From the NCBI GenBank assembly GCA_963663765.2, contig CAXXUA010000005.1:1632001-1696000 (forward strand): a DNA stretch of 64,000 nucleotides, written 5' to 3'. Position 1 is the stretch's first letter; every line of letters begins with the position of its first letter. Under the pieces are notes generated by a model. That model ran no database searches, was not told the origin of the DNA, and saw only the letters and a program-made list of their open reading frames with translations. This document shows positions 1,907 through 64,000 of the stretch, in pieces. The DNA is from Candidatus Poribacteria bacterium. GTDB taxonomy: Bacteria; Poribacteria; WGA-4E; WGA-3G. The position numbers and the translations under genes are program-made.

Positions 1907-2010
1907 GGGAATGCCTAAATGGCATTCATACCGGGGAATGCCAAAAGACATTCATACCCGGGGAATGCCAAAAGGCATTCATACCGTTGATTTCTTGATT
2001 TCTTGATTTC
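1907..2010 (+). repeat. Three nested copies of micro-element A (GGGAATGCC-loop-GGCATTCATACCGTTGATTT)
   Basis: Three hairpin heads followed by three TTGATTTC tails, inside a minus-strand REP (gagacccg|cactac). Confidence 0.8.
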
Positions 2011-2361: not shown

Positions 2362-3486
2362 TCAGATCAACTCAACAAAGACCTCATTCGCCAAAAAAAG
2401 TCCGTGCTGAGTAAGACGAAGATATGTCCCGTTCTGCTCTAACACTCCTAAATCAATCCACTTGCCAATTTTATCTCCAAACGCTACTTCAATTTGTTCA
2501 TTGAAACGTCGTGCATAGTCTGCTACACAGATACCCTCGCGCTTCCGAAGTGCCAACATTAAGGTCTCCGCTTTTTCTGCGGCACCCGTAAGATGTTCAG
2601 TCTCCGAGATAGGTTTTTTGTGTTGATTGAGTGCTTCAATGTAAGGTGGGATACCTCGGATATTGGCATAACGGACACCATCAACATACCCACATGCACC
2701 AACACCTAAACCCACATACTCCTGATTATTCCAATAAACAAGGTTGTGTTTCATCTCTCGATTCAGTAGGGCAAAGTTACAGATTTCGTAGTGCAAATAT
2801 CCTTGTAAGGTAAGGGTTTCAATCGTCCATTGGAACATTTCCGCTTCGGTGTCTTCAGAGGGAAGAACCAGTTTACCCGATTTCCATCTGTCATAAAAAG
2901 GTGTAGACTCCTCCATGACCAGATTATATGCAGAGATATGTTCAGGTTCAAGCGAGACCGTCTCCCTTAAGGTAAATTGCCATTGTTCCATTGTTTGATT
3001 TGGCAGTGCAAAGATCAGAACAATGTTGATATTTTCAAAACCACGTTTTCGTGCTAAATGATAACTGTGAAGGAACTCTTTGACAGTATGGATTCTGCCT
3101 AATTGCTGTAATGTCTCATCCTGCATTGCTTGCAAACCGAAGCTTAACCGGTTGACACCAGCACTTATCATCACGTCAAGTTTTTCAATATCAACGGTAT
3201 CAGGATTGCATTCTACTGTGATTTCAACATCAGGACATATTTGGAAATGTTCGTGTATATCAGCAAATAACTGATCTAAAACATTAGCAGAAAGGATAGA
3301 TGGAGTACCGCCGCCGATAAAGATCGTTTTTAATGGAGCGATCTGAGAGGAATATAGGCGCATCTCAGTGCTGAGTATGTTAATATAAACTCTTGCTTGT
3401 TCCTGCTGGTATAAGTAAGTGTTAAAAGCACAATAATAGCACTGCGTCGCACAAAATGGAATGTGGATATAAAGAGAAGAAGGCAT
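2362..3486 (-). CDS. hemW: Radical SAM heme chaperone HemW
   Basis: LYIHIPFCATQCYYC (CxxxCxxC), IGGGTPS, HNLVYW (HNxxYW). Confidence 0.9.
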   Translation of the reverse strand: MPSSLYIHIPFCATQCYYCAFNTYLYQQEQARVYINILSTEMRLYSSQIAPLKTIFIGGGTPSILSANVLDQLFADIHEHFQICPDVEITVECNPDTVDIEKLDVMISAGVNRLSFGLQAMQDETLQQLGRIHTVKEFLHSYHLARKRGFENINIVLIFALPNQTMEQWQFTLRETVSLEPEHISAYNLVMEESTPFYDRWKSGKLVLPSEDTEAEMFQWTIETLTLQGYLHYEICNFALLNREMKHNLVYWNNQEYVGLGVGACGYVDGVRYANIRGIPPYIEALNQHKKPISETEHLTGAAEKAETLMLALRKREGICVADYARRFNEQIEVAFGDKIGKWIDLGVLEQNGTYLRLTQHGLFLANEVFVELI

Positions 3487-3487
3487 C

Positions 3488-4588
3488 TCAATCAAAAGTT
3501 AGTCCTACACGGATGGCAGCCCCTGAATCAGCATAGGAAAATGCATCGTTAATACGGTCAAACGGGAAAGTATCGGAGATAATCTTATGGAACGGATATT
3601 TTTCTTGTGTCCTACACAGAAAATCAAGTGCACGCGGGATCACCCACGGTTCATAAACGATTACACCCCGAATCGCTTTGCTACATCGAACAATATTGCC
3701 AGGGTCAAGCTCGGTTGGAAATCCCAAATTAATGTTTCCAATCCAGAGATAACGTCCTCCCCACCGAAGCATTTCTATACCCTCTGCAAGGACACGCGGA
3801 GAACCAACGAATTCAGATACAAGATCAGCACCAATCCCACCTGTTTGATTCAGAACAAAATCAACACGTTCCCGAAAAGCAAGATCATCTACATTGACCG
3901 TGTAATCAGCACCAAATTCCTCTGCCAGTGTGAGACGTGATGCAAGTCTATCAAGCACGATGACCTTCCCAGCTCCCATTTCTTTCGCTACTGCAGTCGC
4001 ATAAAGACCAAGTCCGCCAGCACCTTGGATAACAACCGTATCCCCAAGTGTAATACCAATTTGATTAAGTCCATAAATAACTTCTGATAAAGCACAATTA
4101 ATCGGAGATACGAGCGAATCTGGCAACTCATCAGGTACTTTAAAGACCCAATGTCCCGCTTTCATGTAGTAGTATTCACCATACGCGCCGTGAAAATGAG
4201 GGTGTTGTTCGCTTGAAACACCAAGCCAATCTCGGTAACGGTTCGGACAACCGGGTTTGCCGTTTAAGCACATCCAACAACGTTGACACGGTTTGAAATA
4301 GGAATAGACGATCCGATCCCCCTCCGTTAGTTGTTGTCCAATGCTGTCAACTATTACATTTCGTCCTAACGCCTCAATGGTACCAATCATTTCATGACCA
4401 AGGACCTGTGGAACGCCGCTTGTTATCTTGGGACCATGTCCACGCCAAAAATGCAAATCAGAACCACAAATATTCGCCATTCGGATCCGCACCAAGATGT
4501 CGTCTGCTGTTACATTAGGCACAGGATATTCACGAATTTCCAATGGTGTTTGGGGTTCTGTGAAGATAGCAACCTTGCCGGTTTTCAT
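3488..4588 (-). CDS. Zinc-binding alcohol dehydrogenase (MDR family)
   Basis: ICGSD, GHE, CxxCxxC, GAGGLG Rossmann motif. Confidence 0.9.
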   Translation of the reverse strand: MKTGKVAIFTEPQTPLEIREYPVPNVTADDILVRIRMANICGSDLHFWRGHGPKITSGVPQVLGHEMIGTIEALGRNVIVDSIGQQLTEGDRIVYSYFKPCQRCWMCLNGKPGCPNRYRDWLGVSSEQHPHFHGAYGEYYYMKAGHWVFKVPDELPDSLVSPINCALSEVIYGLNQIGITLGDTVVIQGAGGLGLYATAVAKEMGAGKVIVLDRLASRLTLAEEFGADYTVNVDDLAFRERVDFVLNQTGGIGADLVSEFVGSPRVLAEGIEMLRWGGRYLWIGNINLGFPTELDPGNIVRCSKAIRGVIVYEPWVIPRALDFLCRTQEKYPFHKIISDTFPFDRINDAFSYADSGAAIRVGLTFD

Positions 4589-21767: not shown

Positions 21768-22294
21768 GCGCGCTTACAAAGCACGCCTGCAGTTGGGGGC
21801 GCGCTTACAAACCACGCCCGCAGTTGGGGGCGCGCTTACAAACCACGCCCGCAGTTGGGGGCGCGCTTACAAACCACGCCTGCAGTTGGGGGCGCGCTTA
21901 CAAAGCACGCCTGCAGTTGGGGGCGCGCTTACAAACCACGCCTGCAGTTGGGGGCGCGCTTACAAACCACATAGGTGTCAACTTAAGGATTTTACCTCTT
22001 GTGGGAGGGGTTTTCAACCCCGATTTTTTAGTGCATTTCCGCTCAAATCGGGGTTGAAAACCCCTCCCACAAGAGAAAATGCAAACAATATTTTCTTAAG
22101 TTGACACCTATGGGGGCGCGCTTACAAACCACGCCTGCAGTTGGGGGCGCGCTTACAAACCACGCCTGCAGTTGGGGGCGCGCTTACAAAGCACGCCTGC
22201 AGTTGGGGGCGCGCTTACAAACCACGCCTGCAGTTGGGGGCGCGCTTACAAACCACGCCTGCAGTTGGGGGCGCGCTTACAAACCACGCCTACC
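21768..22294 (-). repeat. 31-bp tandem array of a REP (about 12 units), interrupted by a MITE
   Basis: Unit gcagttgggggcgcgcttacaaaccacgcct at 21789, 21820, 21851...; last unit ends cgcctacc (GGTAGGCG on the minus strand). Confidence 0.9.
21971..22111. mobile_element. MITE with ATAGGTGTCAACTTAAG ends and an inverted REP pair inside
   Basis: ataggtgtcaacttaag ... cttaagttgacacctat; second copy at 22493-22631. Confidence 0.85.
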
Positions 22295-22631: not shown

Positions 22632-22995
22632 GGGGCGGGGTCTCCCCGCCCGAACAGAGGTTGGACGCAGGCGAGGAAACCTCGCACCTACGATGTCCAC
22701 AGTTCCCTAACGTCAAGCAAGCTTTGATAGAAACTTTAGATACTTCTTTTATAGTGAAATATACAATTAAGTTTACACTTTTTCTGAAGGAGGGGAATGC
22801 CAATAGGCATTCATACCGTTGATTTGGAGGAATGCCAATAGGCATTCATACCGTTAATTTCGATCTCCGAATCGCGACTGAACGCCTCAATAGTCGGGAA
22901 TCGGAGTTCCCTCCTACACCTGAAAGTGCAAAAATAATTCTAAAATCTACTATAATATCAGGGTTTCTACAAAAACTTTACACACCCCATGAAAA

Positions 22996-25294: not shown

Positions 25295-25781
25295 CCTGCA
25301 ATTTCAAAATCACTTTGAAAACTGTACCTTTGATGAATGTCCCATACACATTCATATCGTTGATTCAATACCCCGTACTGTTTAATATTATGGTGCGTAA
25401 AGTATTGACTATAGTTTGGGCATATTCCGTTTGTTGCAAGTCGGTTTTCAAAGGTGTTTCTATTTTCTACGAGTTACGCATATTCGAGAAACTGGAGAAA
25501 ATACCGCACTCCAATGGTAGGCGGGGAATGCCAAAAGGCATTCATACCCGACGAATGCCATAGGCGCATTCGGCGTTGATTTGGGGGAATGCCAAAAGGC
25601 ATTCATACCGTTGATTTTTTGATTTGGTGCTTTGAAAGCGCGCTGTTGGAACCCACATACCGCTCCAGCGGAGCGGAGTTGTCATTGACAATGTGCTATA
25701 GACAAATTGATAATAACTTAACAAGAAACAGATAGAAACTGTCCAAATTGCTACACTAATGCAACATTTAATTCTAAAAAT

Positions 25782-43241: not shown

Positions 43242-43992
43242 CAAGTTTATTCAGTTTTAAGAGCAGGACTTACGCACCCAACGGTAGGCGTGCTTTGTAA
43301 GCGCGCCGTTGCCAATAGGAGGGAAACCTTGAAATCCCGATTTTCTCACTCAAGGTAGGCGGGGAATGCCTAAACGGCATTCATACCGTTGATTTCTTGA
43401 TTTGATGCTTTGTAAGCGCGCCGTTGCTAATCCTGTGTTTATGACGCACATACAAAACACGCCTACCGGGATGGGGTATTTAGCACTTGGCTTTTTCTTA
43501 AGTTGACACCTATGGGGTCTCTGTGCCCCGCCGCAACTGATTAAATAAGAGATTGCGGAAACAGCACCCATAGGTGTTGTCAACATAAGGAAATATTGTT
43601 AATATCAACCCCATACTCTTCAGTCCCGTAGGGACGATATGTTTATAGATAACGAATACCCTCCCATGTCTTTAGTCCCGTAGGGACGATATGTTTATAG
43701 ATAACGAGTTCCCACCCCTTTTTAGTCCCGTAGGGACGATATGTTTATAGATAACGAATACCCTCCCCATGTCTTTAGTCCCGACAAATGCCATACGCGC
43801 ATTTGGCGTTGATTTGGTAGGGACGATATGTTTATTCTTCTATGCCGTTCCTACGGAACTCAAGAGGGGTAGATAACATATTTCTATAAACATATCGTCC
43901 CTACGGGACTAAAGACATGTACAAGATGGCAATACATAATATTAACGTTATAGTAAACACTCATCAAAAATACCTAAAACTAAATAACCCTG
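43242..43992 (+). mobile_element. Composite CAGGGTTATT-family MITE with GTCCCGTAGGGAC REP cluster and nested inserts
   Basis: 3' part nearly identical to the copies ending at 45964 and 56808; ends aaaactaaataaccctg. Confidence 0.7.
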
Positions 43993-45531: not shown

Positions 45532-45964
45532 CAGGGTTATTTAGTTTTAAAAGTTTTCTGTTATTGAGATGGACTGAAAGTTAATACCCAAATGAGGTCT
45601 TCTAACTGCACCTTACACGTCAATTTTAGATTATTGAAACATGAACATCGGTCTTTAGTCCCGACAAATGCCATACGGGGAATGCCTAAATGGCATTCAT
45701 ACCGTTGATTTGGCGCATTTGGCGTTGATTTGGTAGGGACGATATGTTTATAGATAACGAGTACCCTTCCCAGTTCTTCTTTAGTCCCGTAGGGACGATA
45801 TGTTTATTCTTCTATGCCGTTCCTACGGAACTCAAGAGGGGCAGATAACATTTTTCTATAAACATATCGTCCCTACGGGACTAAAGACATGGACAATATG
45901 GCAACACATAATATTAACGTTATAGTAAACATTCATCAAAAATACCTAAAACTGAATAACCCTG
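45532..45964 (+). mobile_element. CAGGGTTATT-family MITE with 9-bp target duplication
   Basis: gacgttgaa|cagggttatttagtttt ... aaaactgaataaccctg|gacgttgaa. Confidence 0.88.
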
Positions 45965-47960: not shown

Positions 47961-48117
47961 CAGGACTTACGCACCCAACGGTAGGCGCGCTTTGTAGGTG
48001 GGGAATGCCAAAAGGCATTCATACCGTTGATTTGGCGCTGGAAACCGAAAAAATGCTGAAAATTACACCATTTTCGTCATAATTCTTCATCAAATCATGA
48101 AAACTGCGTAAGTCCTG
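47961..48117. mobile_element. MITE with CAGGACTTACGCA ends
   Basis: aaggaa|caggacttacgca ... tgcgtaagtcctg|aaggaa; contains a REP interrupted by micro-element A. Confidence 0.85.
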
Positions 48118-60501: not shown

Positions 60502-60839
60502 AGCAGCGGAAATCTGGTAGGAGCGACCTCCCGGTCGCGACAGTGAGATCGCTCCTAAGCAGCGGAAATCTGGTAGGAGCGACCTCCCGGTCGCGACAGT
60601 GAGATCGCTCCTAAGCAGCGGAAATCTGGTAGGAGCGACCTCCCGGTCGCGACAGTGAGATCGCTCCTAAGCAGCGGAAATCTGGTAGGAGCGACCTCCC
60701 GGTCGCGACAGTGAGATCGCTCCTAAGCAGCGGAAATCTGGTAGGAGCGACCTCCCGGTCGCGACAGTGAGATCGCTCCTAAGCAGCGGAAATCTGGTAG
60801 GAGCGACCTCCCGGTCGCGACAGTGAGGGCGCTCCTACC
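60502..60839 (+). repeat. 56-bp perfect tandem array (6 units) of a GTAG REP
   Basis: agcagcggaaatctggtaggagcgacctcccggtcgcgacagtgagatcgctccta at 60502, 60558, 60614, 60670, 60726, 60782; the last unit diverges. Confidence 0.95.
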
Positions 60840-63694: not shown

Positions 63695-64000
63695 ACGAGT
63701 TGTGCTAAATAACTATATGTTAATCATTGTATCACATAAGCATGACGTTTTGCAGGTGTCCTTCATAGGTTGAAACGATCTTCAGTCCCGTAGGGACGAT
63801 ATGTTTATAGAAAAACGGCATAGTACATCCTCTTTAGTCCCGTAGGGACGATATGTTTATAGAAATACGGCATAGTACATCCTCTTTAGTCCCGTAGGGA
63901 CGATATGTTTATAGAAAAACGGCATAGTACATCCTCTTTAGTCCCGTAGGGACGATATGTGTGCATTATAAACCTAAAATATGTAAAAACTTTGAAAACA
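63695..64000 (+). mobile_element. Copy of the ACGAGTTGTGC MITE, cut by the window edge, with uninterrupted REPs
   Basis: Colinear with 1300-1660; four intact agtcccgtagggacgatatg units. Confidence 0.85.

Follow-up and report, generated by a model that had tools for sequence, protein, structure and literature searches.

A 64,000-nt stretch of a Candidatus Poribacteria genome (6.35 Mb, 15 contigs, 41% G+C; G000:C5:1632001-1696000, hereafter the window) carries at 1906-2010, on the + strand, three 26-27-nt hairpin heads followed by three TTGATTTC tails. Heads and tails are the parts of a short repeat, element A, of which about 480 copies are present in the genome. On balance, we favour the view that such nests arose by recurrent, orientation-specific insertion of the 35-nt hairpin-tail element into its own head/tail junction, followed by slippage and by amplification of the repeats that carry it. 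This view is built on the observed anatomy of element A, the coupling of head and tail counts across the genome, the orientation specificity of the copies, the unit-sized differences between paralogous sites and the precise empty and filled sites.

Structure of the array and of element A

Element A consists of a head, a G and the sequence TTGATTT, in all 34-36 nt. The head comprises a 7-bp upper stem (GAATGCC/GGCATTC), an internal loop and a lower stem, CGG/CCG, whose 3 bp, as read from the sequence, are formed by the preceding C and GG pairing with CC and the linker G. About 437 heads have the exact stem, and ATACCGTTGATTT is present in 487 copies. The array of the window is composed as follows:

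1906-1932, + strand: head 1, outermost, GGGGAATGCC-TAAAT-GGCATTCATACC (GGGG-AATGCC-TAAAT-GGCATTC-ATACC), subfamily TAAAT, perfect 7-bp stem
1933-1958, + strand: head 2, loop AAAA, single stem mismatch (GACATTC)
1959, + strand: linker C between heads 2 and 3, the standard head-to-head linker
1960-1985, + strand: head 3, innermost, loop AAAA, perfect stem
1986, + strand: linker G between the innermost head and the first tail, which together with the 5′ C closes the lower stem CGG/CCG (read from the sequence)
1987-1994, 1995-2002 and 2003-2010, + strand: three tails, each TTGATTTC, i.e. TTGATTT followed by C

The initial annotation of this DNA had placed three heads and three tails at 1907-2010; direct reading bears this out, with the true start at 1906. 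Heads 1 and 2 are joined at 1932/1933 without the usual C linker, a junction type that accounts for 1 of the 145 head-to-head junctions of the genome. Tandem Repeats Finder reported a period of 27 at 1904-1986 (3.1 copies, 89% matches) and a period of 8 at 1987-2010 (3.0 copies, 100%). Nine matches to GGCATTCATACCGTTGATTT with at most two mismatches were found in the window, all on the + strand, and none in 100 shuffles. As single-stranded DNA, the array is predicted to fold at -24.1 kcal/mol (z -4.4), with the heads pairing with themselves or with one another and the tails unpaired. The Rfam search gave no match at gathering score in 1000-2600 and none of any score on 1906-2010.

Compensatory changes are found in the stems of element A subfamilies (GAATACC/GGTATTC and GAATGCT/AGCATTC) and of other species (GAATGAC/GTCATTC and AACGCC/GGCGTT), and therefore the hairpin matters for whatever propagates the element. 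Of 18 other genomes of the genus, 17 contained the 35-nt pattern (154 matches in G017, 0 copies in G003), and of 12 genomes from other genera of the order none did; element A is restricted to one genus. Arrays lie within an open reading frame (ORF) of at least 150 aa in 28 of the 438 cases examined. A role as transcription terminator was rejected: gaps between convergent genes are not enriched (48 arrays, compared with 109 between divergent genes), and the T-rich tail begins 6 nt past the stem.

It is highly improbable that the array is an artefact of assembly in a repeat-rich region. None of the short-read contigs of eight runs spans 1104-2302, so the array is neither verified nor contradicted by them and a polymorphism call is impossible; short-read joints within this interval (e.g. 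1905>2010 in X2 and X3) occur at repeat-level depth, and paralogous empty carriers are their possible source. However, the same architecture with identical linkers is present 80 times in the 15-contig assembly, and 19 of 39 further genomes from the genus, assembled independently, also contain nests.

Coupled head and tail counts

Arrays were collected genome-wide from three kinds of token: head ends TTCATACC (at most one substitution), B-type head ends, and TTGATTT tails (at most one substitution). The tokens were chained by spacing, and the chains with an exact CATTCATACC were kept, which yielded 476 arrays. With H for a head, T for a tail and B for a B-type token, these fall into the classes HT (236), HHTT (75), HTT (57), H (28), HTTT (11), HHTTT (9), HHHTT (6), HTTTT (6), HBTHTT (5), HHHTTT (4), HHT (3), HTHT (2) and HHHHTTTT (1), plus rarer ones; about 15 of the 28 head-only entries are chance 10-mers without a hairpin.

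The 451 arrays with heads followed by tails were entered into a contingency table, and the 25 with interleaved order or B tokens were left out. At least two tails are present in 106 of the 112 arrays with two or more heads and in 75 of the 339 one-head arrays (odds ratio 62, p 2.5e-45), and the Spearman correlation between head count and tail count is 0.59. Balanced arrays with n of at least 2 number 80, compared with 29.6 expected by permutation (maximum 45 in 5000). Since carriers amplify together with their arrays, the data were also collapsed to one vote per flank class (221 classes), which gave an odds ratio of 27 (p 1e-15). The initial annotation had proposed a genome-wide comparison of head(n)-tail(n) with (head-tail)(n) arrangements, and the former prevail by 80 to 2 (pure forms; a few long tandem arrays also exist). 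The uncorrelated counts that it had associated with independent slippage were not seen.

Independent slippage of the adjacent 27-nt and 8-nt tandem repeats, with three plus three at 1906-2010 as a coincidence, is very unlikely, and as the sole cause it is largely refuted by the strong coupling of the counts. The linkers also argue against it. Head and tail are joined by G in 498 of 515 junctions, and 248 of about 296 single copies end in TTGATTT-GG. Slippage of such a copy would give a G linker between tails, and the tail-to-tail linkers are C in 275 cases, T in 14 and single G in none; second tails therefore did not come from a slipping single copy. Adjacent heads differ in 74 of 86 pairs within balanced arrays, and at 1906-2010 the loop of head 1 differs in length from those of heads 2 and 3.

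Traces of slippage are nevertheless present. Adjacent heads are identical in 14 of 35 pairs within arrays where heads outnumber tails, and runs of identical heads occur at C3:252615 (six, with three tails) and on C15 (four, with two tails). Paralogues of X1, the repeat that carries the array of the window, show 1, 2 or 3 heads and 3, 4 or 5 tails. Head slippage is real, but its signature differs from that of nesting. The dismissal of slippage in the initial annotation thus holds for the origin of second tails, but heads and tails do slip secondarily. Nests may later have decayed by this route, with gains or losses of 27 nt at a time for tandem heads and of 8 nt for tails. Loss of a head from HHTT would give head-G-tail-C-tail, which is exactly the form of the 57 HTT arrays.

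Junctions, host repeats and layering

Element A is almost always found inside other small repeats, several of which are repetitive extragenic palindromes (REPs). Its hosts, including the two parts of carrier X1 around the array of the window, are listed below (RAYT, REP-associated tyrosine transposase):

GGTAGGC|GTGCTTTGTAAGCGCGCC: main host, 5′ side of a GTAG-tagged hairpin; 292 empty copies, 111 beginning with the element
…GCCATAC|GCGCATTTGGCGTTGATTTGG: loop of a related hairpin
REPs around the one RAYT gene of the genome: in their loops or tags
Carrier repeat X: home of the array 1906-2010
1835-1905, + strand: left part of carrier X1, with its own long hairpin (1851-1863/1892-1904); the array follows directly 3′
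2011-2057, + strand: right part of carrier X1, GCACTACAATGGAGAGTGGGATG…ACACACCC

The five bases before the head are TAGGC in 115 cases (from the host REP), CATAC in 53, TACCC in 41, GACCC in 30 and ATCCC in 10. Empty carrier X reads GAGAC-CCCGCC and filled carrier X reads GAGAC-CC[GGGG…TTGATTT]CGCC; no base is duplicated. At ATAC|GCGC in the related hairpin loop, and at GGC|GTGC in the main host, the unit gained is [head-G-tail-G]. These pairs of empty and filled sites are precise and without target duplication, and in every host context examined element A lies in or beside a CG dinucleotide. Orientation is fixed: 134 nests are direct and none inverted, and in the main host repeat 185 copies are direct and one is inverted.

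Two further features of carrier X were noted. In some copies (e.g. C13:346081 and C13:111495), another insert, about 160 nt long and bearing long inverted repeats (…CTTGTGGGAGGGGTTT…AACCCCTCCCACAAG…), sits at CC|CG. Element A uses this same point, and the point is therefore a shared hot spot. In addition, empty X1 carriers (C11:19295, C11:171814 and C15:341578) have CTGCC where filled ones have CC[…]CGCC, i.e. a C/T difference at the CG beside the insertion point.

Element A may be a miniature, non-autonomous mobile repeat. Copies would always enter in the same orientation, at short sites in the loops or at the feet of other hairpin repeats, within or adjoining a CG dinucleotide and without duplicating the target. 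The element's own junction, …CATACC-G-TTGATTT, resembles the host sites …CATAC|G, …TAGGC|G and …ACCC|CG, so new copies would land inside old ones, and repeated hits on this junction would produce head(n)-tail(n) arrays.

The usual nest has the form ATACC-C-[GGGG…ATACC-G-TTGATTT]-C-TTGATTT, in which C-element-C stands where the host had G. Of the 145 head-to-head junctions, 121 have a C linker, and the junction quartet C, GGGG, G, C dominates the HHTT class (39+6+4+4+2 of 75 arrays). Insertion at ACCG|TTGATTT, as suggested in the initial annotation, fits just the junction of heads 1 and 2 at 1906-2010, 1 of the 145. Its proposal that insertion is directed to CG agrees with the position of the element in all host contexts examined and with the lack of target duplication, but the proposed cut is not general. 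Simple junction rules worked by hand (duplication of C, G or CG; a clean C|G cut; a circularly permuted unit) were rejected, as none fits all hosts. The lack of one cut-and-join rule for all hosts is the main unexplained point. Solo tails were sought as excision footprints: GGTAGGCGTTGATTT occurs 0 times, and no solo tail was found at paralogous host sites.

Paralogous sites, defined by 100-nt flanks at least 97% identical, differ in unit-sized steps. Between HT and HHTT the difference is 35-36 nt, one head plus one tail (48 pair comparisons), and between HT and HTT it is 7-8 nt (12 comparisons); these counts are many-to-many within repeat families. No head-only difference was found among the 40 commonest classes of such pairs.

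Carrier X1 has about 12 filled paralogues and several empty ones. Filled copies with one head have one tail (one copy), three tails (three copies) or four tails (one copy). Of those with more heads, three have two heads and three tails, the window locus and C15:53791 have three of each, and one has seven heads and three tails. The copy at C11:85534 shows the same head order as the window (TAAAT, AAAA, AAAA), but five tails. Most likely, the triple nest formed once in an ancestral X1 carrier and then spread with it. Among the paralogues, tandem heads may have recombined with one another, with loss of heads, and slippage may have added or removed tails. The iterative insertion envisaged in the initial annotation is thus in line with the count coupling across the genome, whereas the three events read at 1906-2010 are most likely older than this locus, which is one copy of an amplified carrier.

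The order of head subfamilies within nests is asymmetric. AAAA heads are inner in 53 cases, outer in 24 and single in 48. D heads are outer in 21 cases and never inner or single, while Y heads are never single, being inner in 17 cases and outer in 8, and are nested in at least four outer types. The outer/inner order TTAAT/AAAA was found 7 times and its reverse 0 times; the corresponding counts are 13 and 0 for D/AAAA, 7 and 3 for TAAAT/AAAA, and 2 and 4 for E/AAAA. D heads are element A heads with a further small hairpin in the loop region (…TAAAGAAGCATGCGCGTATGGCATGCTCCATGA…), e.g. at C15:53791 and C2:137814. Stems are perfect in 87 of 106 innermost heads and in 62 of 106 outermost heads.

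Variants of heads and tails are also mirrored. The tail TTGATTA follows 5 of 9 innermost Y heads and 12 of 411 other innermost heads, and it occupies the mirror position of the Y head in 7 of 8 arrays holding both; three Y-head arrays have only TTGATTT tails. This pairing is supportive of nesting but thin.

An origin of the nests without recurrent self-insertion has to be considered. One or a few founder nests could have arisen once, by any route, the head-C-head…tail-C-tail module then spreading through amplification of composite carriers and through microhomology-mediated conversion among the approximately 480 copies. The almost invariant junctions of HHTT arrays, the presence of about 12 filled X1 copies with mostly three tails and 1, 2, 3 or 7 heads, the recurrence of the TAAAT, AAAA, AAAA order at C11:85534 and the base changes by the left junction, which resemble copied flank, are all consistent with this. 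We nevertheless regard it as unlikely. Many outer/inner subfamily combinations occur across different hosts, and subfamily Y is never single, yet lies inside at least four outer types. The right-hand homology available for conversion is just the 7-nt tail, and 7 nt is very short for homologous recombination.

Inner-head subfamilies are, moreover, species-specific across the genus (e.g. GAATGAC-TAAAC-GTCATTC in 22 of 22 cases in G017), and therefore, it is argued, nests formed repeatedly, after the species split. With patterns covering loops of at least 5 nt and one kind of single-tail ending, an inner head with two tails was found 102 times in other species (19 of 39 other genomes of the genus) and an inner head with one tail and GG 9 times (6 of 39); the corresponding counts in this genome are 20 and 3.

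Other copies of element A in the window are as follows:

1409-1443, + strand: single head and tail, in the loop of the related hairpin (…AAATGCCATAC|GCGCATTTGGCGTTGATTTGG)
2196-2230, + strand: single head and tail, within a GTAG-tagged REP (GTAGGCG[…]CGATCTCCGAATCGCGAC)
22791-22860, + strand: tandem head-tail-head-tail pair, the rarer arrangement
25523-25625, + strand: A head, full B element including its tail (CGACGAATGCC…GGCGTTGATTT), full A element, extra tail; a composite order found 5 times in the genome
43361-43403, + strand: one head and two tails (head, G, tail, C, tail)
45677-45711, + strand: single head and tail
47999-48033, + strand: single head and tail

The composite array, previously placed at 25524-25627 and described as A head, B, A, tail, tail, was recovered as three heads and three tails, and the array of one head and two tails reported at 43362-43405 was likewise found. 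Several other repeats are present in the window. Tandem arrays at 1465-1569, 43617-43783 and 63779-63960 are built from a 52-nt unit, GTAGGGACGATATGTTTATAGAAAA…TCTTTAGTCCC, that comes with a short hairpin bearing a GTAG tag (GTCCC-GTA-GGGAC); these arrays adjoin the related hairpin and tail element …GCGCATTTGGCGTTGATTTGG (131 copies genome-wide). The main host of element A, the GTAG-tagged hairpin, is the 31-nt unit repeated 16.7 times at 21768-22291 (GCGCGCTTACAAACCACGCCTGCAGTTGGGG). A 56-nt unit (6.0 copies, 99% identity) at 60502-60837 is made of REP type GGTAGGAGCGACCTCCCGGTCGCGA, which also flanks the RAYT gene. A separate hairpin at 1753-1790, GGGTTGGG-TTC-CCCAACCC followed by GTTGGTTT-TTGAGTTT, shares the hairpin-plus-T-rich-tail design of element A and has two tail-like units.

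Candidate mechanisms and known systems

From the features described above we infer the order of events, and we likewise infer that element A is copied by a dedicated strand- and structure-specific enzyme, an HUH/Y1-like single-strand transposase being the best guess. Three kinds of candidate were considered. Four near-identical copies of an IS200/IS605 element encoding TnpA and TnpB were identified (C5:688634, C3:287718, C5:550867 and C5:353059; the last of these is truncated, with another transposase-like ORF after it). Their common ends (…TTAACACTATTCCGTCAAATCCCCATGC…) are unrelated to element A, which speaks against its derivation from these resident copies. A single RAYT-like Y1 gene (C4:621598-622074; 159 aa) encodes HIH and YxxxNP-like motifs and is flanked on both sides by long arrays of a different GTAG-tagged REP (GTAGGAG[CG]GA type). 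A search with this RAYT as query detected no homologue in G001, G010 and G013, genomes with 75, 58 and 41 copies of element A, respectively; homologues are present in genera without element A. RAYT is therefore a poor candidate, and it was rejected as the mobiliser. The recurrent ORFs between neighbouring arrays are just abundant paralogues of WD40 and Gfo/Idh/MocA-like oxidoreductase proteins. Enzymatic insertion, as proposed in the initial annotation, thus stays at the level of an interpretation, as none of these candidates supplied the enzyme.

Several observations weigh against recurrent self-insertion. No insertion event was observed directly, no enzyme was found among the RAYT, IS200/IS605 and recurrent-ORF candidates, and the copies of element A are not independent, carriers amplifying arrays along with themselves. 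Tails outnumber heads in 91 arrays and heads outnumber tails in 44 (of which about 15 are chance 10-mers), so secondary processes are needed. The usual nest is not a clean insertion into canonical ATACC-G-TTGATTT, as it lacks the host G and has a C on either side of the insert. Removal of any one contiguous 35-36-nt piece leaves ATACC-C-TTGATTT, so a single clean insertion cannot have produced it, and single copies with a C linker account for just 4 of 515. In three hosts, filled and empty sites also differ to the left of the insert (GTAGGAG to GTAGGCG, GTAAGC to GTAGGC, and ACC-TC-CCGG to ACC-C[…]G-CCGG), and these differences fit copying with some flank, or amplification of filled composites, no worse than transposition. 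As for layering, a Y head is missing from 23 of the 31 arrays that have a TTGATTA tail, and the excess of perfect stems among innermost heads is gone when D-type outer heads are left out (69 and 62 of 86, p 0.28). Finally, an orthologous empty site was sought downstream of the hemW-like gene near the array (2362-3495, minus strand; orthologues in Poribacteria at 72-82% amino-acid identity), and at all 16 Poribacteria loci the intergenic DNA was unalignable.

The replaced base also bears on a replication-linked, non-enzymatic origin, in which a replication fork stalled at a hairpin would let the nascent strand jump to another copy as template and then return, with head and tail added together. 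The G-to-C replacement and the junction substitutions are hard to get by cut-and-paste, and template switching at quasi-palindromes typically yields such substitutions. The orientation of element A is, in addition, clustered in domains of hundreds of kb (137 runs compared with 204 expected over all large contigs, z -7.3), which could reflect replication direction. We consider such an origin quite unlikely, as no switch path was found that returns to tail-C-tail without a mismatched primer end, and the strictness with which sites are chosen in five unrelated host repeats points to a protein that recognises them. The link between orientation and GC skew is weak and inconsistent (141 and 70 copies in negative-skew regions, 48 and 53 in positive ones). 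Gene orientation shows no correlation with that of element A (Spearman -0.03 over 47 bins) and does not explain the clustering.

It is possible, if doubtful, that element A, with its 35 nt, ranks as the smallest self-targeting mobile DNA to date, carrying a copy of its own integration site and invading itself recursively, and that it is moved by a new strand- and structure-specific enzyme of Poribacteria, other than RAYT or TnpA, that replaces one target base by C-element-C. If new, this enzyme would be a compact DNA inserter guided by sequence and structure.

To our knowledge, the spread of REP-like miniature repeats is poorly understood, and for most of them we know of no insertion event or target rule. 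Recurrent self-insertion would make the element A family an internal record of its own insertions, with ordered layers, mirrored head and tail variants and strict orientation. The exact empty and filled sites in five host repeats and the stereotyped junction constrain the underlying chemistry. Element A is found throughout a genus of uncultured sponge symbionts, and long-read assemblies of this genus now exist; the target rule, the rate and a candidate enzyme could therefore be derived by comparison alone.

REPs, their mosaic assemblies (bacterial interspersed mosaic elements, BIMEs) and REPINs (REP doublets forming hairpins) are short hairpin repeats mobilised by RAYT (Y1/HUH) transposases (PMC2817692, Nunvar 2010; PMC3116915, Bertels & Rainey 2011; PMC3733652, Di Nocera 2013), and in the sections consulted of two of these papers higher-order REPIN clusters are described as tandem, not nested (PMC3116915; PMC3733652). 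Like them, element A is a short intergenic hairpin with hundreds of copies, lineage-restricted, with compensatory stem changes and located in or beside other REPs; the definition of an imperfect palindrome of 20-40 nt, extragenic and in high copy, applies to it as well. As in REP-RAYT systems, the genome encodes a RAYT surrounded by REP arrays belonging to it, but element A neither flanks RAYT nor co-occurs with it. Unlike a REP, element A bears no GTAG or CGTC tag itself and possesses a conserved non-palindromic tail, and unlike a REPIN it forms no inverted doublets (0 inverted and 134 direct adjacent pairs). It also departs from a plain tandem repeat in the coupling of its counts and in the differences between adjacent heads of balanced arrays.

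The right end of IS200/IS605 elements bears a hairpin and a short 3′ tail ending at the cleavage point. The layout of element A resembles this one, and its insertion is likewise orientation-specific, without target duplication and by a short motif. However, IS200/IS605 elements insert at a fixed motif, whereas the left motif of element A is loose (TAGGC, CATAC, ACCC), its nest junction needs a replaced base, it has one hairpin, and the change of G to C-element-C is not the precise joint of that chemistry.

In plants, miniature inverted-repeat transposable elements (MITEs) and other transposons are known to nest in their own kind, as reportedly described by Jiang and Wessler in 2001. The young-into-old logic and the asymmetric subfamily order of element A are similar. 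Unlike MITEs of DDE transposons, element A lacks terminal inverted repeats (its ends are GGGG… and …TTGATTT) and target duplication and is ten times smaller, and it inserts in one orientation, whereas MITEs insert in either.

Our literature searches found no paper on REP-like repeats of Poribacteria or on self-nested bacterial hairpin repeats. Element A belongs with the REP/MITE-like small mobile repeats and behaves like a REP or a small single-strand transposon, but it does not qualify as a REP/REPIN-RAYT element, a DDE-type MITE or a derivative of the resident IS200/IS605 copies. The closest known analogue may be the small dispersed repeats (SDR) of Nostoc punctiforme, reportedly described by Elhai et al. 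in 2008 as hairpins of about 21-27 nt, argued to be mobile and located within other repeats and heterogeneous arrays; they belong to another phylum and differ in sequence.

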